The notes: generated from the sequence alone by a model not told the origin. 64,000 bases of DNA from an archaeon GW2011_AR15 (GCA_000830295.1 CP010425.1:992001-1056000), one strand, 5' to 3'; numbered from the stretch's first letter, positions 5,012-54,715 are shown. Numbers and translations: made by a program.

Positions 5012-5095
5012 ACGCCAGCGCCCGGATTCCCAAATGAGCAAAGCGAATGGGTGCCAAAAATCTGTGATTTTTGAGCATGTTCAAATCCGGCAATC
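5012..5095. repeat. duplicate of tRNA-Ser 3' end plus hairpin cassette
   Basis: 5012-5028 is identical to 5106-5122; hairpins at 5029-5051 and 5055-5073; 5079-5090 is an inverted copy of the T arm. Confidence 0.85.
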
Positions 5096-5106
5096 TAAAA
5101 AATAGA

Positions 5107-5212
5107 CGCCAGCGCCCGGATTTGAACCGGGAATCCCCGAAGGGACCAGCTTGCTTTTCCTGATTACTCAGGTACTCAAGGCTGGCGCAATACCGGGTTA
5201 TGCGACGCTGGC
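5107..5212 (-). tRNA. tRNA-Ser(UGA) with 23-nt intron at 37/38
   Basis: Acceptor GCCAGCG/CGCTGGC, anticodon stem CCAGC/GCTGG, long variable arm, T loop TTCAAAT, relaxed BHB. Confidence 0.93.
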
Positions 5213-5254
5213 ATACAAAAGACAGAAAAAAACCCTGTATTTATATATTATGTT

Positions 5255-6277
5255 TTAGGCCGAGTCTATCTTGTATATTTTCAGCAGTGCAGTCATAATA
5301 GACAGTATAACTGGGCCGAGGACAACCCCGATGATTCCGAACGTGGTAATTCCGCCGACAATGCCGAGTATAATAAGCACAGGATGCACATTAACCTTCC
5401 CGCTTATGACAACAGGCTTCACAACATTGTCCACCATGCTTATCACTCCAATACCGAATGCAAGCAGCGCAAGCCCCCTAAACACGCCGGCTGTTGAGCC
5501 TGAGGAAATCAAGGGGACAACAATCATTGTTATGCTTATGGGGATATAGGCAAATGCAGGCCCTACCATGGGTATGACTGAGAACACAAGAGTCAGCAGG
5601 CCGAAGAAGAGTGGGACCCGAAGCCCGAGAACATAGTATGCAGCAGTCGCAAGTATTGCCTGGAGTATTGCAGTAACCACCTGTCCATATATTACAGCAT
5701 CCATTGTATTTTTTACTTCGCCTATCAATATCTGGCTCTTTGCTTTGCCGAAAGGGAGATATGCCCTAATGCTGTTTACCAACACATCCCCGTCTTTGAA
5801 AAAGAAGAACAGGAAAAGAATGGCCAGAGTGAAGTTCAGTATCCTCCCGGGAACTGATGTGAGGATTGCACGGAGGTTTTCCAGCAGGGAAGAGATGAAT
5901 CCGTCAATTACCCCGTTAAAATTTGACTCCACACCGACACTGCTCAGGATATTCTGGTATAAGCTGACAAGAGTCCCTGTATCACTGGCATAGCCTGAAA
6001 GCCATATATATACTGAAGGGATCTCCTTTATGAGGACATTCACAACATAGAAGACCGGGATTGTAATGATAAGAAGCACAAGCACACATATCAGGAGAGA
6101 GGCCAGCCAGTCGTATCTTATGGCTTTCCTGGCTACTTTGTAGAGAGGATAAAACAGATATGCTATGATCAGTGCACCAAGCATGGTCATTAAGTAAGGC
6201 CTGAACATGACAAAGGAGAGATAGGTAAGCAGAATCAGCATAAAGAGAGGACCGTAGTTCCTGTACAGGTCTTTCAT
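5255..6277 (-). CDS. AI-2E family transporter
   Basis: FFFFKDG, IPMVGP, DNVVKP, HPVLIILG..GG...FG..G..LGP. Confidence 0.9.
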   Translation of the reverse strand: MKDLYRNYGPLFMLILLTYLSFVMFRPYLMTMLGALIIAYLFYPLYKVARKAIRYDWLASLLICVLVLLIITIPVFYVVNVLIKEIPSVYIWLSGYASDTGTLVSLYQNILSSVGVESNFNGVIDGFISSLLENLRAILTSVPGRILNFTLAILFLFFFFKDGDVLVNSIRAYLPFGKAKSQILIGEVKNTMDAVIYGQVVTAILQAILATAAYYVLGLRVPLFFGLLTLVFSVIPMVGPAFAYIPISITMIVVPLISSGSTAGVFRGLALLAFGIGVISMVDNVVKPVVISGKVNVHPVLIILGIVGGITTFGIIGVVLGPVILSIMTALLKIYKIDSA

Positions 6278-6363
6278 CCTAACTCTTTTGTTAAATACAG
6301 TATTTATATCTATCGGTTTTAGAGAGGACAAAATATATATACCTCTCATGATAATTACAACCT

Positions 6364-6624
6364 ATGAAATTTCATTTCATCAGCTCGGTAATATTCAGCG
6401 TATTGCTGGCCCTCATGGCGCTCAATGGCAATATCAAAATCAGGATGCTCTACATGGCAGGGGTGCTTGTGCTGTTCTATGTTACCCTTATCTCATTTGC
6501 CCTTGATTATGATGCACAGAGGAGAAAACAGTGGAGAGAAAAAGAGAAGAAAGTGTCAGAAGAGGTATATCAGAAGTTTGTAAAGCGGCACAGAAAATCC
6601 AGGCCAAAAAGAAAACATAAATAA
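6364..6624 (+). CDS. small membrane protein
   Basis: Two hydrophobic helices and a basic tail. Confidence 0.6.
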   Translation: MKFHFISSVIFSVLLALMALNGNIKIRMLYMAGVLVLFYVTLISFALDYDAQRRKQWREKEKKVSEEVYQKFVKRHRKSRPKRKHK

Positions 6625-6647
6625 ATCATCAGGAATTTTCAGTTCTA

Positions 6648-7484
6648 ATGCACTTTGCAATCATTGTCTCAAAAAAAGATATAGCAGGCATGAACATAAG
6701 GAAAAACCTGCTGGAGATGTTTGATTTTTCTGAGAACGGAGAGTTCCCGGGCAGCAAAACATACAGCCTTAATTCTGATAAAAACATGGTAACATTATAC
6801 ACTATAGACGGAGACACTATTGTTTTTGAGGCAGCAGAGCAGGAGATAGAGGCAGATTATTTTATTTTTGCCACAAGGCACCAGAGCAAGTCAGGGGAAA
6901 AGACGCTTTCAGTGCACTTCCCCGGAAATTTCGGCGAGGCATCTGATTATGGGGGCAGAACAGGGGAGTTATGCACAGCTCCGGCAGGACTGCTGAAAGA
7001 GGGATTTAAGCTGCTTTCTGCTTCTGAAGACATAGGCTTCAGCATAACGCTTGAGGCAACGCACCATGGCCCGTTCATCAGGAAGCCGGTATTATTTATT
7101 GAAATCGGCTCAAGGGAAGAGCAGTGGTCAGATGCCAGAGCAGGAAAGATAACGGCAAAAATAATAATTGAAATGATTAAAAATTACAACCCAGAGAAAA
7201 AATATGAGACTGCAATCGGGTTCGGGGGAACTCACTACTGCAACAGCTTCAACAGAGCTGAGGCAAGCAGGGAAATTGCAATGAGCCACATCTGCCCGAA
7301 GCATTCCATTTCACAGCTTGATGAGACAATGGTAAAGAAAATGATTGATTCAACGCATGAAAAAGTGGACTATGCGCTCATAGACTGGAAAGGAATGTCA
7401 GCTGATGACAGAAACAGGGTAATAGGAATTCTTGATAATTTAGGGGTTGAGTGGAAGAAGACTAAGGGATTGGGAACTGAATAG
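6648..7484 (+). CDS. dtdA: D-aminoacyl-tRNA deacylase (DTD2/GEK1 family)
   Basis: SVHFPGN, EATHHGP, FIEIGS, GFGGTHY. Confidence 0.92.
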   Translation: MHFAIIVSKKDIAGMNIRKNLLEMFDFSENGEFPGSKTYSLNSDKNMVTLYTIDGDTIVFEAAEQEIEADYFIFATRHQSKSGEKTLSVHFPGNFGEASDYGGRTGELCTAPAGLLKEGFKLLSASEDIGFSITLEATHHGPFIRKPVLFIEIGSREEQWSDARAGKITAKIIIEMIKNYNPEKKYETAIGFGGTHYCNSFNRAEASREIAMSHICPKHSISQLDETMVKKMIDSTHEKVDYALIDWKGMSADDRNRVIGILDNLGVEWKKTKGLGTE

Positions 7485-7489
7485 GAATC

Positions 7490-8005
7490 TTATATTTTTG
7501 GGATTAATATATTTCTTACATAATGCCCTGTCCCATTTCTAGGGATTAAAATGGGAACTATATCTCTTACCCAGTCTTTTTCAGGAATCCAGTCTCCCGG
7601 AGTCCCGTCTTTGTGCCTTATATTGAAATCATAGACAAGACCGCAGTCATATGCAACCCAGTGCGTATGGGAATAGGCCTGAGCCCATGCTTTCCAGCCT
7701 GAATATTTCCCCCCGGACCCTGTGAACTGTATAAATGCCAGCCCCGAAGGAAATTCGCCGAATGCTTCACTGGGCAGCTGGGGCTCTCCTGTTGTCCTGA
7801 TGCTTTTATGCGGCTCTCCGAATTCTCCCAGCAGTTCAAGCATAGGCTTTATTGAAATCCATCCTTTCTCCTGCCAGGCATAAGACCTCTCAATTACTTC
7901 CATGCATGATTTATTCAGGTAAGCTGCAGCTGAGGTAGGGCCGCAGTTTGCCAGTGTTTCCAATACATCATCTGGAATTCCTCTACCGGTCGGAACTTGC
8001 ACCAT
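7490..8005 (-). CDS. hypothetical protein, possible C39-like/papain-fold Cys peptidase
   Basis: NCGPTSAA (Cys), THWVAYD (His), VYDFN (Asp) in catalytic-triad order. Confidence 0.55.
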   Translation of the reverse strand: MVQVPTGRGIPDDVLETLANCGPTSAAAYLNKSCMEVIERSYAWQEKGWISIKPMLELLGEFGEPHKSIRTTGEPQLPSEAFGEFPSGLAFIQFTGSGGKYSGWKAWAQAYSHTHWVAYDCGLVYDFNIRHKDGTPGDWIPEKDWVRDIVPILIPRNGTGHYVRNILIPKI

Positions 8006-8110
8006 AAAAAGAGCGATTAGCATCTTATTTATAAATTTGCCTCGGTGCTCTTGAAAATGGGTATATGACAGATAATTTTTTATAGTCAGGGGCAAATCAG
8101 CCATATTGAG

Positions 8111-8323
8111 ATGGAATACATATATGTCTATCTGGTAACAGGGTTGTCTTTTTTTGCCATCTGGCTGACCATATTTATAGCGAGAAAAACAGGCTCAGCA
8201 GTGGCAATGATTGTGCTTTACCTGCTCTTTCTTATGATGGAGTTCAAACCATATTATGTAGACCTGCTTATTGGCGAGATGCGAAAAATGTACTATCGGA
8301 TATTAAGCAGGAACAAAATTTAA
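8111..8323 (+). CDS. small membrane protein or gene fragment
   Basis: 70-aa hydrophobic ORF. Confidence 0.35.
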   Translation: MEYIYVYLVTGLSFFAIWLTIFIARKTGSAVAMIVLYLLFLMMEFKPYYVDLLIGEMRKMYYRILSRNKI

Positions 8324-8348
8324 ATAGCCCTGAATATCACATTCATAT

Positions 8349-9035
8349 ATGCACAAATTAGTTCTGCTGAGGCACGGCGAAAGCGTCTGGAATAAGGAAA
8401 AGATATTCACCGGCTGGACAGATGTCGGGCTTTCAGAGAAAGGCATAGAGGAAGCAAAACAGGCCGGCAGGATTCTGAAGAAAAAGGGATACAAATTTGA
8501 CCTTGCATATACTTCTGTCCTGAAAAGGGCAATAGATACTCTTAAGCTTACTCTTGGCGAAATGGGGATTAAGGTTCCTGTGAAAAAGAGCTGGAGACTT
8601 AATGAGCGGCATTATGGTGCCCTTCAGGGATTCAGCAAAACAGAGATGGCTGAGAAAGTCGGCAAAGAGCAGGTTTTTACCTGGAGAAGGAGCTACGATG
8701 CAAGGCCGCCTGCACTGGAGAAGACAGACAGAAGATATCCTGGAAAAGATCCTCTCTATAAGGATGTTGATAAAAAAGATATCCCTGCATGCGAGAGCCT
8801 CAAGGACACAGTTGCAAGAGTGCTGCCATACTGGGAGGAGGAAATACTGCCCAGCATAAAATCAGGAAAAAGAGTAATCGTTTCAGCCCATGGCAACAGC
8901 CTGAGGGCGCTTGTAAAACACATCGACAATATTTCTGATGACGATATACCTAAGCTGGAAATACCCACCGGAATCCCTCTCGTATATGAATTTGATGAAG
9001 ATATAAGGCCTATAAGGCATTATTACCTGCAATAG
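8349..9035 (+). CDS. gpmA: 2,3-bisphosphoglycerate-dependent phosphoglycerate mutase
   Basis: LRHGES, LNERHYG, WRRSY, AHGNSLR. Confidence 0.96.
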
Positions 9036-9128
9036 CCGAGCTTCATGCTTTCCCTAGAGTTCCCGGAAACCCCCTTAGTTTCCGAAAAATTTAAAAAAAA
9101 CAGCTTCACACCCCGTTCTTGATATAAA

Positions 9129-9296
9129 ATGTCAGATGACTACGTTGAGGACGAGTATGACGATTCAATAGAGGAGTCAAGCGAGGATCTTCTTGATGAT
9201 GATGAGCTTACCCCAGAAGAGCAGGCATTCCTGGAAGGCTATGAGGAGGACTCCGCTGAGGAAGAAGACGATGACCTTGACAAAGAATTTGAATAG
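9129..9296 (+). CDS. 55-aa highly acidic microprotein (not in ORF track)
   Basis: MSDDYVEDEYDD...ELTPEEQAFLEGYEED...KEFE; fills the intergenic gap; TATA-like tttaaaa upstream. Confidence 0.75.
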   Translation: MSDDYVEDEYDDSIEESSEDLLDDDELTPEEQAFLEGYEEDSAEEEDDDLDKEFE

Positions 9297-9298
9297 CT

Positions 9299-10849
9299 CT
9301 AAATCTCAATATATTCCTTGAATTTTGAAATTGATTCCCTGTATTTTTTTATTTCTTCTGCTTTTTCCTTCAGTTTTTCGAGTTCAGAGACATAGTGCGC
9401 CCTTATCTTGTCGAGGCTCTCTTTTCCCTTTACCAGCTCATGCTCTTTTTTTCTTATTTTAGCCTCCTTTTTCTCAATATCCTGTGTCCTGCTCCTGATA
9501 TGCTCTTTTATGTTCTTTTTGTCATTGCTCAGTTTTTCAACCTCAAGCTTCAGTTCAGACAGCCTTTTTTCTTCCCTGTTTCGCATATCCAGCAGGTTCT
9601 TCACTTCAGCATCCAGCTCTTTTTTCTTTGTCTGGAAATCACTTTCATAAGAGCCGAGGACTTTCTCTTTTTCAGCAACAAGGTCAAGCCGTTCCAGCAG
9701 CTGGGTCCTCAGCATATTCAGTTTTTCACTTCTCTTCCCAAGTGCTTTTTCTTTTTCTGCAATTCTTCCCTTTTCGCTGTCTAATTCCTTATTCCTTCTC
9801 TCAAATTCTGCCTGCTCAGCTTTATTTGCGAGCCTGTCTTTTTTCATTGTTTTGTCCAGCTTCTGGAAGTCTTCTATCCTTTTTTCAAATTCCCTGGTTT
9901 TGTTTGCCAGTTTCTCTTCCAGTTTGATGACTCTGCTTTCCCTCTTGTTAAGCTCAAGGTCCAGGACATCAGTGTGAGTTTGCCTTTTCTTTAAGTCAGA
10001 AGACTCCTCTTTTAGTATTTCAGAAAACCTCAGCAGGTCTTTTTTCTTTGATTCAAATGCGCTCCTTTCTTTTTCAAAAGAATCTTTTTTTCCGGAAATA
10101 ATTACTTCTCTCTGCTTTATCTCAGACTCTTTCTCACCAAGCGCATTTGAATATTTCCTGAGCTCAGTTTCCTGCTTCCTGAGGCTTTTGGAGGATCTTT
10201 CAAGCAAAGCCTCCTCTGCCTCCATCTCTTTCATCAGCTTTTCAATTTTTTCACGGGTTTTTCCAAGCTCAATCTGCCTGTTCTCAAGCACCCTGTTTTC
10301 CTCAAGTGCATGCCTGTAAATCAGCTTTGCCTTGTGCTCCCTTATTTTTGTATGCTCAAACTTTTTCTCAAGAAGCGCCTCATACTCAGCAAGATGTTTT
10401 TCATACAGTTTCACGCCTGTCAGCTTTGCCTTGTAATCCTTCTTGTGCTTTTCAAAGCTTACTGCAAGCCCAGGCAGCTTATCTTCCAGCTCTTTCAGCT
10501 TCTTTTCCTTATAGTCAAGCTCACTGAATCTCTTTTTCAGCCCCTTGCCCAGAATATCAAGCTTCTTTTTCTTATCAGAGAGCTTTTTGTTGTGCCTTTG
10601 TATATGCCTGTGCTTTCTTTCAAGAGCCTCTTTCTCAGATTCAACTTTAAACAGCTCTCTTTTCCTGGATTCTTTCTCATTAAATATTCTTTTCAGGCTG
10701 TGCCTGACAAGCAGCTCTTTTCTTGCAGCATCCCTCAATTTAGAATCAACTCTGCTGTGAAGAGACTCAAGAGCCTGCTTTCTTTCAGAAATCTGTCTCT
10801 CAAGCTCTTTCAGCTCTTTCTGTTTTTTTCCAGTCTTTTTTTTAGCCAC
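9299..10849 (-). CDS. long coiled-coil protein
   Basis: 516 aa, K/E/L-rich heptads; GTG start. Confidence 0.75.
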   Translation of the reverse strand: MAKKKTGKKQKELKELERQISERKQALESLHSRVDSKLRDAARKELLVRHSLKRIFNEKESRKRELFKVESEKEALERKHRHIQRHNKKLSDKKKKLDILGKGLKKRFSELDYKEKKLKELEDKLPGLAVSFEKHKKDYKAKLTGVKLYEKHLAEYEALLEKKFEHTKIREHKAKLIYRHALEENRVLENRQIELGKTREKIEKLMKEMEAEEALLERSSKSLRKQETELRKYSNALGEKESEIKQREVIISGKKDSFEKERSAFESKKKDLLRFSEILKEESSDLKKRQTHTDVLDLELNKRESRVIKLEEKLANKTREFEKRIEDFQKLDKTMKKDRLANKAEQAEFERRNKELDSEKGRIAEKEKALGKRSEKLNMLRTQLLERLDLVAEKEKVLGSYESDFQTKKKELDAEVKNLLDMRNREEKRLSELKLEVEKLSNDKKNIKEHIRSRTQDIEKKEAKIRKKEHELVKGKESLDKIRAHYVSELEKLKEKAEEIKKYRESISKFKEYIEI

Positions 10850-11016
10850 AAGAATCCCCAGGAGAATAAATTGTTCTGTGATGGTTTATATATATTTCGA
10901 TTTGTTGTCTGCATTTAATTAATAGAAAAATATTGTATTTACTTAATGATAGTAAAAATAGGAATCTTTAAATATAGCCGGCTTTTTTTGATAGTATCTT
11001 TTAAGAAGGTGAAAAA

Positions 11017-11379
11017 ATGGACGCAAATCAGGACCTGGAAAAAGCATTAAAAATTTTACAATCAGTTCCAATAGACTCATGGAAACAAACTCAAGAAGCA
11101 AATACATTTGCAGCATATATAGAGAGTCCTAACGGGACACCATTAAACTTAAACTTAAGCTATCACATGGTGATGGGGCGCGTAGTTCTTTTACCCGGGC
11201 AAGAGGAACCTGAACCTAATAGAGGATATTATCTAAATATCAGAAATGGGAACGATCCTCTTAATGTTCTGTATACCGGGGTAATGTACGAACCAGACAG
11301 TGAATTTGGAAAGATATATCATCAACTCAAGGAGGAGAGATTTGCAAGAGAACATTTAACTTTGGAGGATGTATTTTAA
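11017..11379 (+). CDS. hypothetical protein
   Basis: ORF with GAAGGTGA Shine-Dalgarno-like motif and upstream tttaaata. Confidence 0.65.
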   Translation: MDANQDLEKALKILQSVPIDSWKQTQEANTFAAYIESPNGTPLNLNLSYHMVMGRVVLLPGQEEPEPNRGYYLNIRNGNDPLNVLYTGVMYEPDSEFGKIYHQLKEERFAREHLTLEDVF

Positions 11380-11395
11380 TTTTATTCCAGTTCTC

Positions 11396-11737
11396 TTATT
11401 TTATTATAATCCTTTCAGCAATAATCTCTTTTTCACCATTGTATTCAGATATCTTTCCTGCAATCTCTACGCTGTCGCCAGGGGCAATTTCAATATCAGA
11501 TGAGAAGACAACAGCATTTATTTCAGTGGTTTCTGCCAGCACAAGACGTGTTGCCTCTCCCTTCCGGCTTACTGAAACAACTTTCCCTGCTACCTTTACA
11601 GATTCTTCTGTTTCCCCACTAGTTATCTTGTCTATGGTTGTGTCGTTTATCTCAATCGACTCAGCAACAGCATAGATCAGGCATAGCCCGACCAGTGATA
11701 CGAGTATAGCTATCCTTAGCAGGGTTGATTCTTTCAT
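11396..11737 (-). CDS. membrane-anchored OB-fold protein
   Basis: N-terminal TM helix; VKVAGKV...PGDSVEIAGKISEYNGEKEIIA. Confidence 0.75.
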   Translation of the reverse strand: MKESTLLRIAILVSLVGLCLIYAVAESIEINDTTIDKITSGETEESVKVAGKVVSVSRKGEATRLVLAETTEINAVVFSSDIEIAPGDSVEIAGKISEYNGEKEIIAERIIIK

Positions 11738-11749
11738 TTTAACGGGAGA

Positions 11750-13660
11750 CTAATGCTTTTTTGTTTTTGCCCTGAGCTGATGAAGTACTTTTTCATGCCC
11801 TTTCCAGTCAAGGGCAGTCTCAAGGACTTCAAGAATGTTTTCCACAGGTATGACTTTTATTTTTGAAAGCTGCTCAGGAGAGATTATAATATCCCTCATG
11901 TTACTCTTGGGCACAATGACATACTTAAGTCCTGCTTCAATTGCTGCTTCCACTTTGCTTGTCACACCGCCTACAGGCAGCACTTCCCCTCTTACAGAGA
12001 GTGAGCCGGTCATTGCATGATCCTGCTTGATAGGCACTTCCTTCAGCGCGGAGATTATTGTTGTTGCAACAGCAATGCTGGCTGAATCCCCCTCAACACC
12101 TTCGTGAGTCTGGAGGAACTGGACATAAATGTCATATTTGTGCTGGATATCCTCTCCAAAGTATTTCCTTACGATAGCAGTGACATTTTTTATAGCTTCC
12201 TTGGCAATTTCCCCAAGGTTTCCGGTTGCAATTACCTGAGACTCTTTTCCGCCAAGCGTAACCTCTGATTCAATAGGGAGTATAATTCCTGAGAAAGCTG
12301 CTCCTCCGCCGATTACAGCAAGCCCGTTTACCCTTCCGACCTGCTTTCCTGATGTCCTTATCACTTCGTATTCCTTTTTCCTGTCTATATATTTGTCAGC
12401 TATCTGCTGCTCAAGTGTCCTTGAAATCTGCTTTGCCTTCTTTATGTGTTCAGGCTCAACAAGCTTATCTCCTTTTTCAGCAGCAACATCACCGGCAGCC
12501 CTTACAAGCCCTCCGAGATCCCTTAACCTCAGCGTAAGATGGCCTTTCCTGTTGGCCCTTTTCCTTGCCTCTTTTATTATCTCTTCGACAGCGGCTTTTG
12601 AGAAATGGGGGATCCTCTCATCTTTCTGGACTTCCTGGGCTATGAAAACAGCCAGCTTTTCCCTGTTTTCTTCATTATCCGGAATAGTCTCATCCATGAA
12701 AACCTCATAGCCGTATCCCCTTATCCTTGACCTTAAAGCAGGATGCATGTGCTTTACAGTCTCAAGGTTGCCTGCTGCCACGAGAATGAATTTGCATGGT
12801 ACAGGCTCTGTCCTTACCATAGCTCCCGCCGACCTTTCGGACTGGCCTGTAATTGCATACTTGCCTTCCTGCAGTGATGTAAGCAGCTCCTGCTGCGTCT
12901 GCGGCTGCAGTGTTGCAATCTCATCTATAAACAGCACACCCATATGGGCCTTGTGTATCATTCCCGCAACAACCCTGTCATGGCTGGGAGTGCCGAGCCC
13001 TCCGGACTGGAACGGGTCATGGAGGACATCCCCAAGCAGAGCTCCGGCATGGCTACCTGTTGCATCAAAGAATGGTGCCTGTTTTTTCCCAAAATTATCA
13101 ACAATAACCCTTGGAGCAAGTGTTTTCTGCTCCATCTTCCTCCCGAAGTTCATCATGAATATAAATCCGAACACAAACACGATTCCTGTCACCATTGATG
13201 CAGAATATATTATTGCGTTTGCAGTCGGGTTTCCCGGAACAAAGAATTCGTTCTTCCACAAATAGTAAGGCACAAGTGTTGAAATTATTATAAGTATTAT
13301 CATGATTACATTCATATGGCTCATTGAGGTATTGCTCTGTATCTTTGCCTTCATGGCAAATTCCCTTCCTTTTCCGCCTGCCATTGTCCTTATCAGCGGC
13401 TGGTTTTCATCATTGGGATTCGGGAAAGACAGGATATCAACAAGCTTTTCTTTTGGCAGAAGCTCAGCAAGAGCAATGCCCAGCATGGATTTTCCGGTTC
13501 CGGGCTCTCCTATAAGCAGGACGTGCCTTCTCTGCCCAGCAGCCTTTTTTATTATATTTACGGCATGCTCCTGTCCTATTACCTGGTCCACAATTTTTTT
13601 GGAAACAGGTATATCCTTTGTAGTCCTGAATTTGAGCCCCTTTGCCTTTTTTTCAGCCAT
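11750..13660 (-). CDS. lonB: archaeal Lon protease LonB
   Basis: Walker A GEPGTGKS, two TM helices, LFIDEI, catalytic EGDSAS and GGVTSK. Confidence 0.96.
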
Positions 13661-13716
13661 TCTAAACCGTAAAATGCACTTGGTATTTAAATTTAGTGAT
13701 AGAAAATATGCAGATT

Positions 13717-14421: not shown

Positions 14422-14493
14422 ATATTTTTGGATATCTCAGATCTTTTTAAGAGTTTGGTTATATTTTTAAAAGCAGCCAGTTTCCCAGAAGCT

Positions 14494-20772: not shown

Positions 20773-21186
20773 ATGCCGGAAGATGACATTCGCAGGTTGA
20801 GAAAAGATATTGATTCACTGAAAGATGATATGCAGACAAGGGATTCGCTTGCCCGCTCTGTTAATTCTTTGCTGAAGATATTCGAGGAAGCATCCAAAGA
20901 CCTCAAGATGGACACAAGGGATGCTGTCCTTATATCGGAAAAGATGGATAATATAATGAGGCGGCTGGAAAGGCTGGAAACCCATAATGAGAAGATTGCC
21001 AAGGGAATTGTGGCAATAGCGGACATGCTTGAGGAAAAGGGATTTGCCAAAGTGCAGAAGGGCGAATCAAAATCAATCCTGGCAAGCGCAACCCCTCCGC
21101 CAGCTATGGGCAGCACAAAGCAGCTGCCAACATATGATATCCCTAAAGATGAAAGGAAAAAGACATTTCTGAATTTCAAGAGTTAA
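20773..21186 (+). CDS. hypothetical coiled-coil protein
   Basis: GAAGGTGA Shine-Dalgarno-like motif; heptad pattern. Confidence 0.7.
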   Translation: MPEDDIRRLRKDIDSLKDDMQTRDSLARSVNSLLKIFEEASKDLKMDTRDAVLISEKMDNIMRRLERLETHNEKIAKGIVAIADMLEEKGFAKVQKGESKSILASATPPPAMGSTKQLPTYDIPKDERKKTFLNFKS

Positions 21187-21187
21187 A

Positions 21188-21619
21188 ATGCCCGGTTTTG
21201 AACAGTATAACACGGAAAGAGTAAAGACTTTTCTAAAATACCTTGTGCACGCTGCGGCAAAACATAAGCCTGAGAGAGCAGTAATCAGGGAATTGAGAGA
21301 GCAGCGGGAAGAAAGGCTTGTTCCGGCAATAAGGAAGAGGCCTGAGAGGCTCCATATACCTGGCAGTGCAGAAAGGCTTTCTGTAATAACAGATGAGAGA
21401 AAAGAAGAGCTTGAAGTGAAGATAAAGATGCACCACACAAGAAACAGGTTTCTTCCATACGAGCTAAGGCTGAAAAAACTAAAGAAGAGGTATGCAACAA
21501 TAAAGAGAAGAAAAATCTCCACCAAGGCTGATAAGAGAAGGCTGGAAGTGCTGAATAACAGGATAGAAAGATGCGAGAGCCTGCTGAAAGAATTAAAAGC
21601 CAATGCCCACGAATATTAA
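21188..21619 (+). CDS. hypothetical basic protein
   Basis: ORF starts directly after the previous gene. Confidence 0.6.
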   Translation: MPGFEQYNTERVKTFLKYLVHAAAKHKPERAVIRELREQREERLVPAIRKRPERLHIPGSAERLSVITDERKEELEVKIKMHHTRNRFLPYELRLKKLKKRYATIKRRKISTKADKRRLEVLNNRIERCESLLKELKANAHEY

Positions 21620-21624
21620 CTACC

Positions 21625-21705
21625 TCAGATATCTCTTGCCATAAGAGTCTCTGTTTTAAGAAAACAGAGGACAAAACAAGTGGGTTTCGCTTCGCTCAAG
21701 CCCAC
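21625..21705. repeat. synonymous duplicate of histone-fold gene 3' end plus two hairpins
   Basis: 21625-21648 matches 21711-21734 at 20/24 nt; hairpins at 21649-21669 and 21680-21705. Confidence 0.85.
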
Positions 21706-21710
21706 AGAAA

Positions 21711-21875
21711 TTAGATATCCCTTGCCATTAGTGTCCTTCTTCCGTTTGCAGTTGCCCTTTCAAGAGCCTTCTTTATGACGCTCTCGACTTTCACATTGAG
21801 TGCAGGGTAAAACTCTTCTGAGATATTAACGTCCCCTACAATCTGCTTTATCTGGGCTTTTGTTACCAGGTACAT
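21711..21875 (-). CDS. histone-fold protein (DUF1931-like), 54 aa (not in ORF track)
   Basis: MYLVTKAQIKQIVGDVNISEEFYPALNVKVESVIKKALERATANGRRTLMARDI; R-T-x4-D L2 signature; GAGGTG Shine-Dalgarno-like motif. Confidence 0.88.
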   Translation of the reverse strand: MYLVTKAQIKQIVGDVNISEEFYPALNVKVESVIKKALERATANGRRTLMARDI

Positions 21876-39908: not shown

Positions 39909-40029
39909 GCCCAAGTAGTGTAGTCTGGCCTATCATAAAGCCCTGTCGAGCTTTGCGCGGAAAGGCTTTGACCCGGGTTCAAATATGTCCATAGTCAAAA
40001 GCTAAGCATTGAGTGTCCCGGCTTGGGCG
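39909..40029 (+). tRNA. tRNA-Asp(GUC) with introns at 37/38 (14 nt) and 59/60 (32 nt)
   Basis: Acceptor GCCCAAG/CTTGGGC; both introns form BHB motifs; splicing restores TTCAAAT. Confidence 0.9.
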
Positions 40030-40046
40030 TCTTATTATATTAAGAC

Positions 40047-40134
40047 GGGCCGGTAGCTCAGCTTGGTAGAGCACCTGACTTTTACCTTTAAGGGAGAAAT
40101 CAGGTGGTCGCGAGTTCGAATCTCGTCCGGCCCA
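40047..40134 (+). tRNA. tRNA-Lys(UUU) with 14-nt intron at 37/38
   Basis: Acceptor GGGCCGG/CCGGCCC, anticodon stem CCTGA/TCAGG, TTCGAAT. Confidence 0.93.
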
Positions 40135-47450: not shown

Positions 47451-47451
47451 G

Positions 47452-47748: not shown

Positions 47749-47955
47749 CTGTATAGCTTGCTGGTTCTGGGAATAGAAATAATGGATGGGAAAGACGTTA
47801 AAGAAGAGAATCCATTTAAGTCTGCTGAATCAAATACAGATGATATTGTATCTGGGTTAGATTTTAAAAATTGATTATATACTCTCTCAAATTTTTATGA
47901 TTATAGCTCCCGCTATCTCAAATTGACTATGAAATTAAAATAAAGAAAAAAAAAA

Positions 47956-50883
47956 GATGAAACCGTGCATAGAGTAAGTAATGAGCTTTTAGTGACCGCA
48001 TGCTGAACGCCTCGTGACCTTGGCGTGTACACACCGGTTCTATTAAACCTGTCTTTTACAGGAGCTCTATGATATCTCTTTTCGAGGCGGGCTTCAAGCT
48101 TAGATGCTTTCAGCTCTTATCCCTTAGCGCGTAGCTGCCCGGCCTGCCTTATCAGACAACCGGTTGACCAGAGGCGCCGAACCTTTGTTCCTCTCGTACT
48201 AAAAGATCCTTCCTCTCAGATATCAAACAATTCCAGTAGATATTAAACAAACTGTCTCACAACGTTCTGAACCCAGCTCACGATCCCTTTTAATGGGTGA
48301 ACACCCCCACCCTTGGCTGCTTCTGCACAGCCAGGATAGGAAGAGCCGACATCGATGTAGCAAGCCCCGCCGTCGATATGAGCTCTTAGGCGGGACAACT
48401 CTGTTATCCCCGGAGTAACTTTTTTGTCATTCCTGACCCCCATCAAGGAGGTTCAAGAGTTCGCTAGACCACACTTTCGTGGTTGGATTTCGTAGATTGG
48501 GAAATCCAATCAGGCTGGCTTTTGCACTTGCACTCTACACCGGATTTCTGACCCAGTTGAGCCAACCATAGGGCCCTGTTGATATCTTTTCAACAGGGTG
48601 CCACCCCAGCCAAACTGTCCACCAATTGCTGTCCTCTTTCAAGTAAGCAGCGTAAGTTCTGGAGGATGGTATTTCAACGGCGTCTACACGCAATCTAGCG
48701 ATCACGCTTTAGCAACTCCCATCTATTCTACACACCAAAACTCACGTCACAACAACAGGCTACAGTAAAGTTTCGCGGGGTCTTCACTTCCCACTGGAAT
48801 ACTCTGGCCTTTGCACCAGACAGAGTGTTCGGAGGATGCTAATTGGGGACAGCGGAGATCTCGTTGCACCACTCATGCGGGCCGTCAATTAAACGGCAAG
48901 GCATTTCGCTACCTTAAGAGAGTTATAGTTACTCCCGCCGTTTGCCAGATCTTAGCTCCCTTGAAAGAGAGTTTGAATTACTGGTACTGGGCAGGTGTCA
49001 CGTTCTATTCACATCTTTTCAGACTTGCAGAACGTTAAGTTTTTGTTAAACAGTCGGACCTCCCTTGTCATTGCACCCTGCAATCGCCTTCAAAAGAAGA
49101 CCACCGCAGGGACCCCTTAAACCGAAGCTACGGGGCTAGGTTGCCGAATTCCCTCAATTACCTTAATCCTTCACACCTTAGGCTTCTCACCTAGGGGCAC
49201 CTGTGCTGGTTCTTGGTACGGATATCTAAAGTTTTTCTTTTTTCCCTTTTCACGGTCTCCAGGCATGAACCAAATACCCCATACGGGATACCATTCTAAC
49301 CTTAATCAGGTTCTCATCATTACGATACTCCTCTGATTTTCTGTTATTAGCAGATAAGATGATATCTGTTGATCTAGCCGGAAGAGTCGGGAATAAAGCT
49401 TGCGTTGCCGCACATAAATAGACAATACAGGATTATTAACCTGTTTCCCTTTCCCATTACTCCTATTAGGAGATTGGTTAGGACCGATTACCCCTTGACT
49501 GATTTGCATTGTCAAGGAACCCTTGCCCTTTCGGTGGCACTGATTCTCACAGTGCTCAGTTCCTACTACCGCCAGGATTCTCTATTCAAGTCAGTCCACA
49601 AATCCTTCAGGAAATGCTTCTGCCTGACCAGAATGCCTGCCTACCACTGCCTTTTCAGGCGTCCACAGTATCGGTGACCGATTTAGCCCCGTCCATTTTC
49701 AAGGCCATCAACCTTGACAAGTAAGCTGTTACGCACTTATTATAGGGTGGCTGCTTCTAAGCCAACCTCCTTGCTGTCTTAGGCTGAAGACACCCTTCAC
49801 CCTTTAGCACTTAATCGGCACTTAAGGACCTTAACTGTAGTTTGGGTTGTTCCCCTCTCGGTAATCAAGTTTACCCCAAGATTACCCGTTTCCTGACGTC
49901 TACGATGCAATAAAATTCGGAGTTGGACAAAGAACCGAGTCCTTTCGGGCCCTAAATTCTAAATCCGTTTCTCTACCTTCATTGCAATCTCGGTCAAGGC
50001 TTGACTACGGCCAATTTTGGCAGGAACCTGCTATCACCGGGTTCGATTGGCTTTTCACCCCTAGCCCAAGATCAGAGGAACGCTTGTTCACAGAACCCCT
50101 TCAGGCCTCCACCCCTTTTTACGGGGGCTTCACCTTGTCCTGGGTTAGATCACCCGGTTTCAGATCGTGCCCATATGACTTAAAGGCATTATTTATACCT
50201 TTCGCCTTGCAGGCTGCGCGATTTTGCTTTCGCTGCGGGTCCTTCCTTTTAAGAATTGCCCTTGCCATATTGACACACTCCCTGGCTCGTTATTCGAAAC
50301 GAACGATACAACTCCGTAGAGCCGTATCTCACTATCACTGTTAGGTTTCAGGTACTTTTAACCCCCTGTTATGGGTACTTTTCAACTTTCCCTCGCGGTA
50401 CTCGTACGCTATCGGACTCATATTGTATTTAAGGTTGGGAGTTGATGCCTCCCGGATTCTCAGCTAATTTCCAATAGCTGATACTCTGGATACTGCTAAA
50501 ATCCCCTTTCATTTCCCCTACGGGACTATCACCCTCTGCGGTCCAACTTTCCAGAAGTATTTGGGTCACAAAAAAGGATAAAAAGCAGTCCGAACACGTC
50601 ATCTACTTTACATTACTGCAAAGTATCAGTTTGCCTTGTGCTGCTTTCACTCGCCGTTACTTACAGCATCTCGTTTGATTTCTTTTCCTGCAGGTACTAA
50701 GACGCTTCAATTCCCTGCGTCTCGCTATCCTTACGGATCTATAGTGAAGTCACATTCAGGAACCCCAGGATCAGAGGCTGCATGCGCCTACCCTGGGCAT
50801 TTCGTAGCTTGCCACGCCCTTCATCACCACTATGAGCCTAGTCATCCACCTAACAGCTCGAACACTCTATGCACGGTTTCATC
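47956..50883 (-). rRNA. rrl: 23S rRNA (ends approximate)
   Basis: Sarcin-ricin loop AGTACGAGAGGA and PTC motifs on the minus strand; bounded by a perfect 20-bp inverted repeat (47956-47975 / 50864-50883). Confidence 0.96.
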
Positions 50884-51070
50884 AATAATCATGAAGTCGA
50901 TGATTATCTAATCCTTTAGATCAGCATGTTGAAACACTGCTCATCCATTTCACTAATGATAAAGTGAACTTGAATTTTAGTGAGGGATTCCCTCACACTC
51001 CCTTATAGGAGTGCGTGAGAACCATTGGTTCTCACCAAGTTATTATGTATGATTTGTTTATTACAATAAA

Positions 51071-51193
51071 TGGACTCGTCGGGACTTTCATTGTAACCCA
51101 GCTGGACTGGGCTAATTTTGAACCCGAGGCCTCCGCCTCTCTTTCTCCAGAGAGATGCAAGGGCGGCGCTCTAGCCAACTGAGCTACGAGCCC
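51071..51193 (-). tRNA. tRNA-Ala(UGC) in the 16S-23S spacer, introns at 37/38 (17 nt) and 59/60 (32 nt)
   Basis: Acceptor GGGCTCG/CGAGTCC with G3:U70; T-loop BHB with TTCA/TGAA helix and AAA and AGT bulges. Confidence 0.92.
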
Positions 51194-51331
51194 ATTGATT
51201 TTGATTTGTGACGGCCATGATATCTCTTCATGACCTTTGTGATTATGAAAAGGCATCTGTTTTCAGTTTTCAGCATTCTCTTTTTCCTATTCTTGGGCAG
51301 GGCCCTTTTCAGGAAATGTATGAAATAAAAA

Positions 51332-52799
<1,468 letters not shown>

Positions 52800-53054
52800 T
52801 TGATTGGACAATTGTTTTTTGAAAGCCGCAATTGTCCTTTTAGATCCTTTTTATTGTGCACGGTCGTATGTTTTCGCTTTGTTAATTGTAGTAATTAACG
52901 AGAGTTTGCTTATTTTGTAAGCAGATGCCTTTTTCATACAAGATTGATGAATCTTGTACACATATTCTGTGAACAGAAACTAGCTGATAATTTGTGAATT
53001 ATTTGGAGGTGATTGCTAGCAATCAATGAAATTTTAGGTCGTATATAAACATTA

Positions 53055-53156
53055 TTATTTCTGAGCTCTCTTACGTCTCTCTTTCTTCATCCTCTTGCGC
53101 TGCCATTTCCAGCGCATTTGGCGCTTTTTCTTCCATCTCCTAGAGCTTCTTTTCAT
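53055..53156 (-). CDS. rpl41e: ribosomal protein L41e (eL41/eS32), 33 aa (not in ORF track)
   Basis: MKRSSRRWKKKRQMRWKWQRKRMKKERRKRAQK; GAGG Shine-Dalgarno-like motif and TATA upstream. Confidence 0.88.
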   Translation of the reverse strand: MKRSSRRWKKKRQMRWKWQRKRMKKERRKRAQK

Positions 53157-53219
53157 TTATATACCTCTCTGAGGAAAAACCTGGTGTTTTTAAAGCTTTT
53201 GTATTTAGAAAACAGGAAG

Positions 53220-54557
53220 CTAGAAATAAATCATGGATTTGTCTGCCATCTTTTTTGTTATAATAATGTCTTTAAAAATTGATTCTGAAGTCTTTACTGC
53301 AAATTCCCTTGCAGTTTTTTCCTCTATTTCACTGAAATTAGTATATCCCTGCCTCTTTTTTACAAAATTTATTATTTCATCTGATTTTGTCTCTTTCCTG
53401 TAGAGCATCTCCATGAAATTCTTTATCGGAGCTCTCATCTCAATGGTCGTTATCTTTTTAACCAGGCTAAGGAGGGATTTGCAGTATCTGTACACCTTTT
53501 CTGATTCAAAACCATAAAATGCTGATTCTTTTTCAAGCAGCTTCAAAGTTGCCATATCAGGAACATAAAGCTCATTATCCTCAAGTTTGAAAGGCTCATG
53601 ACTGCCTGCTTCTCCCGGAACAACCCTTACTTTGTTATTCTGGACAAATTTTGACAGTGAATTCAGCACGCTGGTCATGGCAACGACATTGTTCAGCGTA
53701 TTCATATCTGAGCCTCTTGATTCGATAGTTGCATGGCTTGTTATTTTTACCGGCTTCCATGATGAATCCAGGAGCGAAAATTCTTTTTTTGCAAAATCCT
53801 GCCTTGTAAGGTTATGGATTTTAAGGAGTGAAGACCACTTTCTTGACAATTCCAGTGTGCTCTCGGAAACTGCTTTAAAAGTCGGTTTATAGCTATTTAG
53901 CATTCCAAACTCAGGGTATCGGGAATATAAGGAGTTCTCATAACCAAACTCTGAATCCCCCCTGTAGGCTATTACCCTGCCATCTTTCCCTTCAAGCCGG
54001 GATTCATAATATGGGCTTGACTGCATAAATGTCGTAATTGCCGGGTCAAGTGCAACATAAAGGTTGTAAAGATTCAGAATCTTCTGCTGCTGGATCTCTT
54101 TCAGGTCAATGTAGAAATATTTTGTAATCAGGTTGAAGGATTTTCTCGGGAGCGAATAGTGGTAATGGAAGCCAATGCATTTTCTTGCATTTTCAAATTC
54201 TTTTTTTCCGAGTATTCTCTCTTTTGCAAAATATCTCCTGTCTTCAGTTATTCTTGTTGTGTTCTTCCCGGGATAGCTTCCATAATAGTATATCCCAAGC
54301 TCGTTGTTTTCCAGTTCATAGACCAATGACTCAAAATCACGAAAAAAATTACCGAATATTTCCCTGGAGGACATATGCGGAAAACTTGCAACTTCAAGCA
54401 TTGATTGCCCGCATTCTTTTTTTAACTCAATTTCCTTGAGCTGCCTTTTTGAATCTCTTAATATTGCTGCTGCCTTGTTTGCTATTTTCCCTTCGTGGTT
54501 CAGGAGGAAGAACTCAAGCTCCATCCCAAACAACTTTGATATGCTGAACTCCATCAT
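53220..54557 (-). CDS. glutamate--cysteine ligase (GCS2)-family protein
   Basis: GMELEFFL, MLEV, GFHYH, SSPY, TIESRGSD. Confidence 0.72.
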   Translation of the reverse strand: MMEFSISKLFGMELEFFLLNHEGKIANKAAAILRDSKRQLKEIELKKECGQSMLEVASFPHMSSREIFGNFFRDFESLVYELENNELGIYYYGSYPGKNTTRITEDRRYFAKERILGKKEFENARKCIGFHYHYSLPRKSFNLITKYFYIDLKEIQQQKILNLYNLYVALDPAITTFMQSSPYYESRLEGKDGRVIAYRGDSEFGYENSLYSRYPEFGMLNSYKPTFKAVSESTLELSRKWSSLLKIHNLTRQDFAKKEFSLLDSSWKPVKITSHATIESRGSDMNTLNNVVAMTSVLNSLSKFVQNNKVRVVPGEAGSHEPFKLEDNELYVPDMATLKLLEKESAFYGFESEKVYRYCKSLLSLVKKITTIEMRAPIKNFMEMLYRKETKSDEIINFVKKRQGYTNFSEIEEKTAREFAVKTSESIFKDIIITKKMADKSMIYF

Positions 54558-54572
54558 TCTTAAAAATAAATA

Positions 54573-54624
54573 TGCCTCGGCCGATATCCTCATTGCTCAT
54601 TCGGAAACCTGCCAGGCAATAAAC
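54573..54624. repeat. duplicate of tRNA-Glu 3' end plus short hairpin
   Basis: TGCCTCGGCCG at 54573-54583 and 54625-54635; CCGA...TCGG hairpin at 54581-54604. Confidence 0.65.
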
Positions 54625-54715
54625 TGCCTCGGCCGGGATTCGAACCCGGGTCAAAGCCTTTCTCCAATTGGATTGCGAGAGGGCTTTATGATTGGCCGGA
54701 CTACACTACCGAGGC
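54625..54715 (-). tRNA. tRNA-Glu(CUC) with 16-nt intron at 37/38
   Basis: Acceptor GCCTCGG/CCGAGGC, anticodon stem AAGCC/GGCTT, BHB. Confidence 0.93.

Follow-up and report, generated by a model that had tools for sequence, protein, structure and literature searches.

The three gene-end duplications with adjoining hairpins in the analysed window, a stretch of 64,000 nucleotides from the genome of the archaeon GW2011_AR15, on balance probably belong to one lineage-wide family of enzyme-less gene-end cassettes that would arise by attL/attR-like recombination with an incoming gene end. The cassettes appear to represent a mobile unit not described so far, without an enzyme of its own and related to the tRNA introns of this lineage, and no published account of such gene-end cassettes was found in the literature. 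They have a length of 40–110 nt, and each is located just outside a gene, with the terminal 9–57 nt of that gene repeated on its far side. Owing to this second copy beyond the cassette the gene stays whole.

The duplicates and hairpins at the three loci, a tRNA-Ser gene, a gene coding for a conserved small protein of 54 amino acids, and a tRNA-Glu gene (Table 1), were all found as outlined in the preliminary description. The first tRNA is Ser(UGA) by eye, the ARAGORN call being Ala(tgc). A T-run of its cassette adjoins the tRNA, and its outer copy is followed by a T-run terminator and the stop codon of the neighbouring gene. The label “histone-fold gene” previously attached to the 54-aa gene reflects a similarity to the Pfam family CBFD_NFYB_HMF (E = 0.0085) that is weak, its 16.8 bits being under the cut-off of 21.4 bits; the orthologs in seven relatives end with RRTLMARD[IL] and the stop codon. 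Both hairpins of its cassette are joined by the linker TTGTTTTGTC. The stems of the tRNA-Ser and 54-aa cassettes differ (CCCA..TGGG and GTGGGC..ACCCAC, respectively) while the loop motif is kept, and the two cassettes indeed have opposite orientations, with the motif on the strand opposite to the tRNA in the former and on the same strand as the gene in the latter. In the tRNA-Glu(CTC) cassette, part of the tRNA end is present in antisense orientation (TGCCTGGC) and is followed by the hairpin GGTTTCC-GA-AT-GAGCA-AT-GA-GGATATC, and the whole cassette is identical (41/41 nt) to that behind the tRNA-Glu(TTC) gene elsewhere in the genome. No ORF and no integrase was found inside the window cassettes (41–77 nt).

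Table 1. Features of the three cassette loci in the window (S1, inner copy; S2, outer copy of the gene end).
Locus	Feature	Position	Strand	Basis or remark
tRNA-Ser	tRNA gene with long variable arm and anticodon-loop intron	5105–5213	−	ARAGORN with introns; Rfam tRNA model, 42.8 bits
tRNA-Ser	S1 ACGCCAGCGCCCGGATT, tRNA positions 58–73 + 1 nt, in working tRNA	5106–5122	−	Exact repeat
tRNA-Ser	S2 ACGCCAGCGCCCGGATT	5012–5028	−	Direct repeat of S1 (17/17 nt), distance 94 nt
tRNA-Ser	Cassette, 77 nt	5029–5105		Unstranded
tRNA-Ser	Tandem-G.A hairpin, stem CCCA..TGGG around TGAGCAAAGCGAA	5029–5051	Motif on +	In cassette
tRNA-Ser	Perfect hairpin AAAAATC-TGT-GATTTTT	5056–5072		In cassette
tRNA-Ser	Inverted tRNA T-arm copy GTTCAAATCCGG	5079–5090		In cassette
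tRNA-Ser	Predicted optional T-loop (59/60) intron, 94 nt	5027–5120	−	BHB scan, relaxed hBH
54-aa gene	Conserved small protein gene	21711–21875	−	Weak histone-fold similarity
54-aa gene	S1, last 7 codons and stop (TLMARDI-stop)	21711–21734	−
54-aa gene	S2, also encodes TLMARDI-stop	21625–21648	−
54-aa gene	Main-family cassette, 62 nt	21649–21710	−	Model R1, 62.8 bits, E 7e-10
54-aa gene	M1 hairpin GTGGGC-TTGAGCGAAGCGAA-ACCCAC (GTGGGC-TTGA-GC-GAA-GC-GAAA-CCCAC)	21680–21705	−	In cassette
54-aa gene	Second hairpin CTCTGTTTT-CTT-AAAACAGAG	21649–21669	−	In cassette
tRNA-Glu	tRNA-Glu(CTC) with anticodon-loop intron	54625–54715	−	Rfam tRNA model, 48.6 bits
tRNA-Glu	S1, 11 nt	54625–54635	−	Direct repeat
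tRNA-Glu	S2, 11 nt	54573–54583	−	Direct repeat of tRNA 3′ end
tRNA-Glu	Short-type cassette, 41 nt	54584–54624	−
tRNA-Glu	Motif CCGAATGAGCAATGAGG	54588–54604		In cassette

The cassettes at all three window loci are insertions relative to relatives of the same genus, since the orthologous sites in such relatives are empty. The syntenic tRNA-Ser of genome G004 lacks the cassette, the tRNA end itself being located at the position of the outer copy; the same cassette type occurs behind the tRNA-Ser genes in G001 and G005. Behind the ortholog of the 54-aa gene the cassette is missing in seven of seven relatives examined, and behind the syntenic tRNA-Glu it is absent in G002, as it is behind that of G001. 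The outer copy at tRNA-Glu is followed by TATTTATT, the bases found directly after the tRNA in G002. tRNA-Lys represents the reverse case, G003 having a cassette at both ends and G000 and G002 having none, and PTH2 carries a cassette in G000 and G003 but not in ten other relatives examined. Empty and filled states are thus both present among genomes of the same genus, in line with the earlier proposal that the cassettes are insertion units. The duplicates are not an assembly artefact, because one contig of another sequencing run (X8, belonging to the same study as a possible source run) covers 4579–5896 with zero differences, another reaches 21004–21717, and relatives show the same layout of duplicate and cassette. 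No circle, RNA intermediate, or within-population empty allele was seen in the assembled DNA contigs, and among the contig joints listed, none skips a cassette.

The genome of this tiny groundwater archaeon has a size of 1.16 Mb and is represented by a single contig that is 96.8% complete. The layout recurs in it far beyond the three loci. For 17 of the 39 tRNAs predicted by ARAGORN, ≥11 nt of the own 3′ end recur exactly within 300 nt downstream (after removal of two from a raw count of 19 that consisted only of the T-arm of a neighbouring tRNA), compared to 2/39 when the same tails were sought in the 300 nt upstream, both being T-arms of neighbours. Together with one tRNA missed by ARAGORN and three diverged copies, 3′-end duplicates are present in 21 tRNA genes, and about half of the tRNA genes carry gene-end cassettes. 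While the layout of the gene-end duplicates is significant, loose matches to the loop motif (≤2 mismatches) numbered 3 in the window versus 3.75 expected, which is not significant. Mirrored copies were found at the 5′ ends of at least six tRNAs, and at least seven protein genes have the same arrangement of cassette and duplicate. The covariance model R1 detected 24 sites in the genome (E ≤ 1), including the ends of genes coding for a class II aaRS, PTH2, Nop10, two unnamed proteins, and the 54-aa protein, as well as one site inside the intron of tRNA-Gly(CCC). The 5′ end of the Hsp70 gene carries an R1-like cassette that was found via a 39-nt repeat and not by R1. The assumed targeting of conserved gene 3′ ends therefore extends to protein genes as suggested, but is too narrow with respect to 5′ ends and tRNA introns. 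Among 41 genomes, 20 have R1 matches, their number being 17 in this genome versus 0–6 per relative. The polarity of the cassettes is near-constant at both gene ends, the first hairpin adjoining the gene and the second hairpin and outer copy being distal. Tandem accretion was observed behind tRNA-His and tRNA-Phe, where the outer copy is the more diverged one.

The duplicates of tRNA 3′ ends begin at positions 58–62, corresponding to the conserved T-loop/T-stem border, the inner junctions of these cassettes are T-rich, and the outer copy matches the local tRNA in every case. B-type cassettes at Ile, Arg, and Val tRNAs are 92–95% identical to one another. These observations, as well as the identical cassettes at the two tRNA-Glu genes and the failure to find a mobility enzyme, would fit a copy-choice process linking tRNA genes in the course of replication or repair, in which a nascent strand would leave at the T-run, copy the cassette of another tRNA, and return at the T-loop sequence (A)ATCC; the local 3′ end would thereby be copied again, and neither an enzyme nor a circle would be needed. 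We consider this explanation unlikely, as it does not account for protein-gene targets lacking homology to tRNAs, for mosaic or synonymously recoded copies, and for the mirrored 5′ cassettes.

The cassettes are defined by their hairpins, as had been assumed. In the hairpin alignment 93.6% of the cells are paired compared to 72.7% in shuffles, and double-sided changes amount to 95 versus 22.8, values that were not reached in any of 500 shuffles. Support for the hairpins comes from this covariation; the folding energies of single loci are unremarkable (z −0.7 to −1.8). The hairpins fold on one fixed cassette strand regardless of the direction of the host gene, with a ratio of G.T to A.C of 33 to 3 overall and of 11 to 1 among those 18 copies that lie antisense to their host gene. 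The mini-hairpin d(GCGAAGC), previously regarded as a characteristic feature, is not what is conserved: its closing pairs covary (GC 26, CG 11, AU 5, and UA 1 of 44), and the kept feature is the flanking TTGA...GAAA. The second hairpin is 90–97% identical across genera and has T-runs in its loop, as read from the sequences. The tandem G.A motif of the cassettes, which occurs with GNRA or triloops, is retained in copies antisense to the host transcript.

Some cassettes are kept at orthologous sites, namely the 5′ cassette of Arg-CCT, with an identity of about 88% between G000 and G003 according to our own count, and the Gly-CCC intron cassette in G000 and G007, which could mean function and not mobility. 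According to this alternative the cassettes would be resident functional modules under selection, such as terminators or processing or protein-binding hairpins (e.g., a kink-turn-like L7Ae site), and the spare gene end would be needed for hairpin function. The covariation, the conserved second hairpin with its T-runs, and the tandem G.A motif would be in agreement with such a role. Kink-turns and K-loops consist of a C-stem, a 3-nt bulge, and tandem sheared G.A pairs, with the non-bulged strand leading straight from the GA into the C-stem; the cassettes have a tandem GA..GA and a covarying 2-bp stem, yet one or two extra A follow the 3′ GA. We give little credence to resident modules, since the same strand folds in the antisense copies, where the structure thus cannot act in the host transcript, the presence among species of the same genus is patchy in both directions, and the copy number is expanded in this genome.

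The duplicated ends of protein genes offer information on their origin. In three genes, eight of eight single-base differences between the copies are synonymous, where 16–24% would be expected (the product of the expected synonymous fractions is about 3e-6 by our own calculation); in the 54-aa gene 20 of 24 nt are identical and all four differences, including TAA to TGA, are synonymous. The PTH2 copies are mosaic, with 27 nearly identical nt followed by 30 diverged nt that are still coding and have the stop at the same place, a pattern also found in G003. Based on this small sample of eight sites and one mosaic pair, the duplicates are not ordinary target-site duplications, and the exclusively synonymous or mosaic differences suggest that one copy probably stems from the gene of another lineage, as at attL/attR. 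The regeneration of target ends postulated in the preliminary description is supported by these protein-gene copies. The same data make it highly improbable that the cassettes are MITE-like non-autonomous transposons mobilized by an unseen transposase with long and variable staggered cuts, maybe supplied by a virus or host cell, because recoded and mosaic duplicates cannot arise by gap filling. Insertion with direct target duplication, empty sites in relatives, near-identical copies within the genome, and a fold confined to one strand, like that of elements transferred as single-stranded DNA, would all be compatible with such transposons. However, the duplications of 9–57 nt are far more variable than transposase products and differ from the short fixed duplications of MITEs, no terminal inverted repeats were seen by eye in the cassettes inspected, and no transposase family was found in the 96.8%-complete contig. 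To our knowledge, no transposase makes duplications of such variable length.

Searches of the genome yielded no match to Y1/HUH transposases (PF01797; a control search was positive in 6 of 14 known genomes), Cas1 (PF01867), or reverse transcriptase (PF00078), the enzyme expected for a TPRT-type or group II retroelement, and only a sub-threshold zinc-ribbon match to TnpB (PF07282). The formerly favoured HUH/Y1 mechanism is therefore unsupported, and among the candidate enzymes only recombinases, namely one XerA-like gene and a 165-aa fragment of a second, were detected. The cassettes resemble REP/REPIN-RAYT elements and IS200/IS605-derived PATEs in being small, non-coding, hairpin-defined, strand-specific, and multi-copy. 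Both of these groups depend on a Y1/HUH transposase and insert without duplicating their target, whereas the genome carrying the cassettes has no Y1 or TnpB and the cassette duplicates are long. Insertion at the 3′ ends of tRNAs and other genes, a long target duplication, and the location of the newest unit next to the gene in tandem arrays are shared with casposons and Cas1-Cas2 integration. There the target duplication is fixed at 14–15 nt; the cassettes differ in this respect, and in the lack of Cas1 in the genome and of terminal inverted repeats visible by eye.

Like SSV/pNOB8-type archaeal elements, genomic islands, and their integrase-less derivatives (CIMEs), which integrate at the 3′ end of tRNA or protein genes and bring along a replacement for it, the cassettes are bracketed by a gene-end direct repeat that leaves the gene intact, and like integrative elements in tRNA and protein genes they show tandem accretion and two end copies that can differ in history. 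In contrast to integrative elements, they are short and gene-free, have a repeat of no fixed length, are found at 5′ ends and within introns as well, and are not accompanied by a cognate integrase. They could be regarded as decayed scars of integrase-mediated virus or plasmid integration from which the element body was later deleted; this would match the attL/attR-like layout, the foreign-looking gene ends, and the known behaviour of archaeal integrative elements (PMC3293823). Such an origin is scarcely credible, as more than 30 elements would all have to shrink to 40–110 nt with the same covarying hairpins, no tRNA-end copy was found in this genome at distances between 150 nt and 15 kb, and the XerA-like recombinase and the fragment are the only ones present.

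If the cassettes instead arise by recombination with an incoming gene end, incoming DNA already bearing the gene end of a related lineage would recombine with the resident gene via a short shared stretch in a Campbell-type or homology-driven, attL/attR-like event, and the duplicate would not result from staggered cutting. Such events would rely on host recombination, given that the genome offers no integrase, transposase, or reverse transcriptase. A homology route would favour the most conserved sequences, such as tRNA ends and the genes of Hsp70, class II aaRS, PTH2, and Nop10, and only insertions whose shared stretch reaches the end of the gene would survive. The two copies and the hairpins should also permit precise loss, which would explain the patchy presence among species. 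Double-stranded DNA circles as small as 80–170 bp are implausible; a single-stranded or RNA intermediate, or one contained in a longer fragment, would have to be involved. The near-constant polarity is not predicted by simple homologous insertion, and the scheme leaves the first arrival of a cassette at a new gene unexplained.

A BHB scan, which recovered 14 of 16 canonical introns of the genome as control, linked the cassettes to T-loop introns, a connection missed in the preliminary description. BHB-like motifs at the exact repeat distance were detected at 8 of 20 loci versus 0–5 at shifted distances, and six of the eight have the T-loop 59/60 geometry in common. These six are among the 17 tRNA 3′ cassettes scanned, include tRNA-Ser of the window, have the outer copy as 3′ exon, and show the hBH geometry h(T-stem)-H(TTCR:TGRG)-bulge AA/T at 59/60. 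At tRNA-Ser the motif consists of CCCGG-TTCA-AA/T on the 5′ side and TGGG-AA/T-CCGGG on the 3′ side, and the predicted intron comprises S1 from T60, the cassette, and AA. No BHB motif was found by the scan at the other 11 of the 17 cassettes, at tRNA-Glu, at the 54-aa gene, or in any of the seven 5′ duplicate pairs tested (six genes), and the protein-gene cassettes lacked it with one exception. Among archaeal BHB tRNA introns at the non-canonical T-loop position 59/60, a relaxed hBH motif in the pre-tRNA-Cys of ARMAN-2 is reported to be cleaved in vitro by the epsilon2 endonuclease (PMC3239211). An EndA gene is present in the genome analysed here.

Real T-loop introns share the same ending, both here (tRNA-Asp, 39910–40030) and in relatives, and relatives carry the same module in introns of the D-loop, the anticodon loop, and the T-loop. 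Six cassettes thus agree with archaeal BHB 59/60 introns in their motif, but most cassettes have no BHB, and, in contrast to archaeal BHB introns, the entire 3′ exon is repeated at the start of the predicted intron, which would make splicing optional. At about a third of the tRNA 3′ cassettes, including that of tRNA-Ser, the conserved cassette tail GG-TGRG-AA would pair with the universal T-loop TTCR and form the hBH(Bh′) motif of 59/60 introns, and read-through transcripts could therefore be spliced. Judging from these motifs, one and the same element seems to exist in two states, as a cassette and as a T-loop intron. As a tentative and rather doubtful extension, the cassettes may be the vehicle of non-canonical intron gain: the strand-specific hairpin module would insert at the end of a tRNA gene and bring a spare copy of this end with it, pairing of its tail with the T-loop would provide a spliceable 59/60 motif from the first day, and decay or deletion of the inner copy would turn the cassette into an obligate T-loop intron, while insertion of the same module into the D-loop or the anticodon loop would account for the other intron positions. 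If true, this would represent a route of intron gain without a reverse transcriptase or a dedicated recombinase.

At each of the three loci in the window, a hairpin cassette separates a gene end from a second, outer copy of that end (see the table below). The stems and the TGAGCRAAGCGAA motif that the preliminary description had claimed for these loci were recovered at the same positions. The label "histone-fold" for the 54-aa gene is weak, with an E-value of 0.0085 that lies under the Pfam cut-off. In comparisons of the cassettes with Rfam, no family was obtained at E ≤ 5, nor at the gathering threshold within the window, and folding energy was not significant when assessed locus by locus.

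Coordinates of cassette loci and further features in the window, in the genome under study (G000, contig C1) and in a relative (G001)
Feature	Coordinates	Strand	Remarks
tRNA-Ser	window 5105-5213	minus	long variable arm and intron; last 17 nt again 94 nt downstream
54-aa gene	window 21711-21875	minus	last 8 codons again 86 nt downstream
tRNA-Glu(CTC)	window 54625-54715	minus	last 11 nt again 52 nt downstream
tRNA-Asp(GTC)	window 39910-40030	plus	two introns: anticodon loop and T-loop 59/60 (ATGTCC...CATTGAGTG)
ARAGORN "tRNA-Stop (tta)"	window 40047-40134	plus	by eye, intron-containing tRNA with anticodon TTT (Lys)
Repeated element of ~80 nt	G000:C1:560-5500		outside window; copies at about 0.7, 1.6, 2.2 and 5.4 kb of contig
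65-nt tandem duplication	G000:C1:272777-272881		outside window; promoter and leader before small gene
tRNA-Pro(CGG) fragment (L023)	G000:C1:769600-769670		5'-truncated and divergent; anticodon arm to 3' end
Tyrosine recombinase locus (L061)	G000:C1:1152420-1155896		sole full tyrosine recombinase, XerA-like, 319 aa
Tandem hairpin locus (L064)	G001:C130 1-700		tandem-G.A hairpin unit (about 44 nt), 3-4 times in tandem

The host genome, a single contig of 1.158 Mb with 42.5% GC in which the window occupies G000:C1:992001-1056000, contains many more such loci. A copy of the 3' end of at least 11 nt was present within 300 nt downstream of 19 of the 39 tRNAs predicted by ARAGORN, and 17 remained after removal of two cases that consisted only of a neighboring tRNA's T-arm; in the control, in which the identical tail was sought upstream, two of the 39 tRNAs gave a match, both to T-arms of neighbors. 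An unbiased direct-repeat scan (spacing 30–220 nt) agreed with this tRNA-by-tRNA test. Both ARAGORN and the Rfam tRNA model overlook or misassign tRNAs at cassette loci. If one tRNA that ARAGORN did not detect (near 763.1 kb) is added, together with three loci whose copies have diverged, 21 tRNA genes carry a 3' cassette. Six tRNAs additionally have an upstream copy of their own first 8–17 nt, which begins at the transcript start expected from a TATA-like box. Duplicate lengths range from 9 to 57 nt. Beyond tRNA-Pro(CGG), its cassette and the outer copy lies the truncated fragment L023, which resembles an older displaced gene end.

In the commonest cassette type, the first hairpin, M1 (GTGGGC-TTGA-[2 bp, loop, 2 bp]-GAAA-CCCAC), is joined by the linker YTGTTTCC to the second, M2 (YCAAnnn...nnnTTGG), after which comes the tail TGRG. 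M2 can also be viewed as a pair of 11-nt inverted arms (8 of 11 positions matching) around a 6-nt spacer, a putative dif-like shape. A second type has M1 swapped for GTTCTGTTAAC-ttg-GTTAACAGAAC; within the genome, the copies of this type at the tRNAs for Ile, Arg, and Val share 92–95% identity, and protein-gene matches to same-genus relatives show about 63–80% DNA identity. A short type, seen at the tRNAs for Arg, Thr, and Glu, combines an incomplete antisense copy of the tRNA's end with the hairpin GA-NN-GCAA-NN-GA; in the tRNA-Ser type, the tandem-G.A hairpin lies on the other strand. A loosely defined structural pattern (regular expression) for the first hairpin was abandoned after yielding 369 mostly spurious matches, and a replication-direction rule was dropped because cassette strands were, by eye, independent of genome position. 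The ~80-nt element near the contig start likewise carries the GAGCGAAGCGAA hairpin motif, with none of its copies adjoining tRNAs; the 65-nt tandem duplication lacks a hairpin cassette and is unlikely to be related.

A covariance model of the main cassette family (R1), built from 14 copies, detected 24 sites in the genome at E ≤ 1, which include protein genes. New cassettes were located at the 3' ends of genes for a class II aaRS (30-nt repeat), PTH2, and an unknown protein of 185 aa (56-nt repeat), at the 5' ends of Nop10 and of an unknown 294-aa gene (two tandem cassettes), and within the tRNA-Gly(CCC) intron. Hsp70 has an R1-like cassette at its 5' end, which was detected not by R1 but through its 39-nt repeat, a repeat that spans the ribosome-binding site and start codon. 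The XerA-like gene of L061 lies ~1.1 kb from the Nop10 cassette, past the eIF2-alpha gene.

Comparison with related genomes shows that the cassettes are insertions, as had been proposed for all three window loci. The orthologue of the 54-aa gene abuts the neighboring gene without a cassette in all seven relatives examined; in G004, tRNA-Ser comes immediately after the syntenic upstream gene; and in G002 the bases after the syntenic Lys-Glu tRNA pair are TATTTATT, as after the outer copy in the studied genome. The reverse case is tRNA-Lys, which is flanked by cassettes on both sides in G003 and by none in G000, and the PTH2 cassette is present in G000 and G003 with an empty site in 10 other relatives. 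R1 matches occur in 20 of 41 same-order genomes, with 17 in G000 versus 0–6 in each other genome. The 27 loci examined in relatives comprised tRNA 3' ends with a duplicate (n = 7), tRNA 5' ends in mirrored orientation (n = 7), introns in the D-loop, anticodon loop, or T-loop of tRNAs, antisense to the tRNA and without duplicate (n = 5), one reversed cassette at a tRNA 3' end, and protein-gene ends or intergenic sites (n = 7). Among the joints listed for contigs of four DNA runs, none skipped a cassette, and no clear empty allele was evident; contig breaks in these runs fall within repeats. In a same-genus relative, the tandem units of L064 lie between the outer copy and the tRNA at two tRNA-Ser genes.

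In an alignment of 44 copies, whose fit to the model somewhat inflates the pairing and covariation numbers, 93.6% of the cells were paired versus 72.7% in shuffles, double-sided changes numbered 95 versus 22.8, none of 500 shuffles reached the observed value for pairing or double-sided changes, and the covariation score fell from 0.56 to 0.105 or less when partners were slid. Cassette copies contained 33 G.T wobbles versus three A.C mismatches. Because this excess also holds in the 18 copies antisense to their host gene (11 versus one), the fold is a property of the strand of the cassette itself, either as RNA or as single-stranded DNA, rather than of the host transcript. A hammerhead ribozyme was set aside, as the core lacks two bases.

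The idea that HUH/Y1 enzymes recognize these hairpins found no counterpart in the genome (one contig, 96.8% complete), where searches gave no match for a Y1 transposase, a reverse transcriptase, or Cas1, and only a sub-threshold zinc-ribbon match for TnpB. Tyrosine recombinases are represented by one XerA-like protein and a 165-aa fragment of another. These searches indicate that a mobility enzyme is lacking, and larger elements bounded by tRNA-end copies were not found in it at 150 nt to 15 kb. EndA is present, as is RNase P RNA, so that 5' leaders need no special route.

The sequences of the two copies argue against simple target-site duplication. All eight single-base differences between copies in the 54-aa gene, Nop10, and the 185-aa gene are synonymous (stop to stop counted), whereas only 16–24% of random changes are expected to be so (product of fractions ~3e-6 by our calculation). 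Changes in a neutral spare copy should for the most part be non-synonymous. The most economical reading has one copy stemming from another lineage's orthologue, with the gene end carried in by the incoming DNA. The two PTH2 copies form a mosaic: a stretch of 27 nt is almost identical, and the next 30 nt have diverged with the stop position unchanged and still encode a plausible PTH2 tail (GITSELKLM* vs KITGSLKLI*); the same pattern occurs in G003. A diversity-generating retroelement was set aside, as the differences are not adenine-specific and no reverse transcriptase was found. Entry may have occurred by homology-driven recombination of DNA already bearing the gene end, which would favor conserved genes and explain the recoded copies. 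Cassettes may be lost when the two gene-end copies recombine or undergo slippage. Homology-driven entry does not account for the orientation of the first hairpin, which at 5' and 3' ends alike nearly always points toward the gene, nor for the first colonization of a new gene.

A subset of the cassettes has junctions that resemble those of introns. With a finder for bulge-helix-bulge (BHB) splice motifs that recovered 14 of 16 canonical introns in controls, a BHB-like motif was detected exactly at the repeat distance in eight of 20 duplicate loci, versus 0–5 at shifted distances. Six loci (Thr-GGT, Arg-CCT, Phe, the tRNA near 763 kb, Leu-TAG, and the window's tRNA-Ser) have one geometry in common, with the T-stem as outer helix, the T-loop TTCR opposite the cassette's TGRG, and predicted cuts after position 59 in both copies. 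The central helix is perfect in five of these six, where ~0.3–0.5 of 17 would be expected by chance (our estimate from base frequencies). The 185-aa gene has a perfect symmetric BHB-like motif; no such motif was found at tRNA-Glu, the 54-aa gene, or the 5' duplicates (0 of 7 repeat pairs). True 59/60 introns of the lineage, in tRNA-Asp of the window and in others in relatives, share the same ending. This tRNA-Asp(GTC) was missed by ARAGORN and the Rfam tRNA model alike, and its orthologue in G004 lacks the T-loop intron; the odd "tRNA-Stop (tta)" call beside it is due to an intron. The ARMAN-2 endonuclease is reported to cleave in vitro a 59/60 intron with a relaxed motif, hBH (PMC3239211). 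We infer that cassettes and T-loop introns represent alternative states of the same element.

In full-text searches of the literature, no description of the cassette/gene-end-duplicate layout was found; new here are the census of protein genes in G000, the tests of strand and of synonymous changes, and a BHB scan run with controls. One small module would occur in three states, as a trailer or leader accompanied by a spare gene end, as a predicted optional 59/60 intron, and as a true intron. According to a 2026 preprint on Asgard tRNA introns (10.64898/2026.10.13.758758), how these arrive "remains open"; a module in three states would make the arrival of archaeal tRNA introns, itself an open question, testable. 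The cassettes may also represent foreign DNA that gets into tiny DPANN genomes without a recombinase of its own, with a preference for the most conserved genes.
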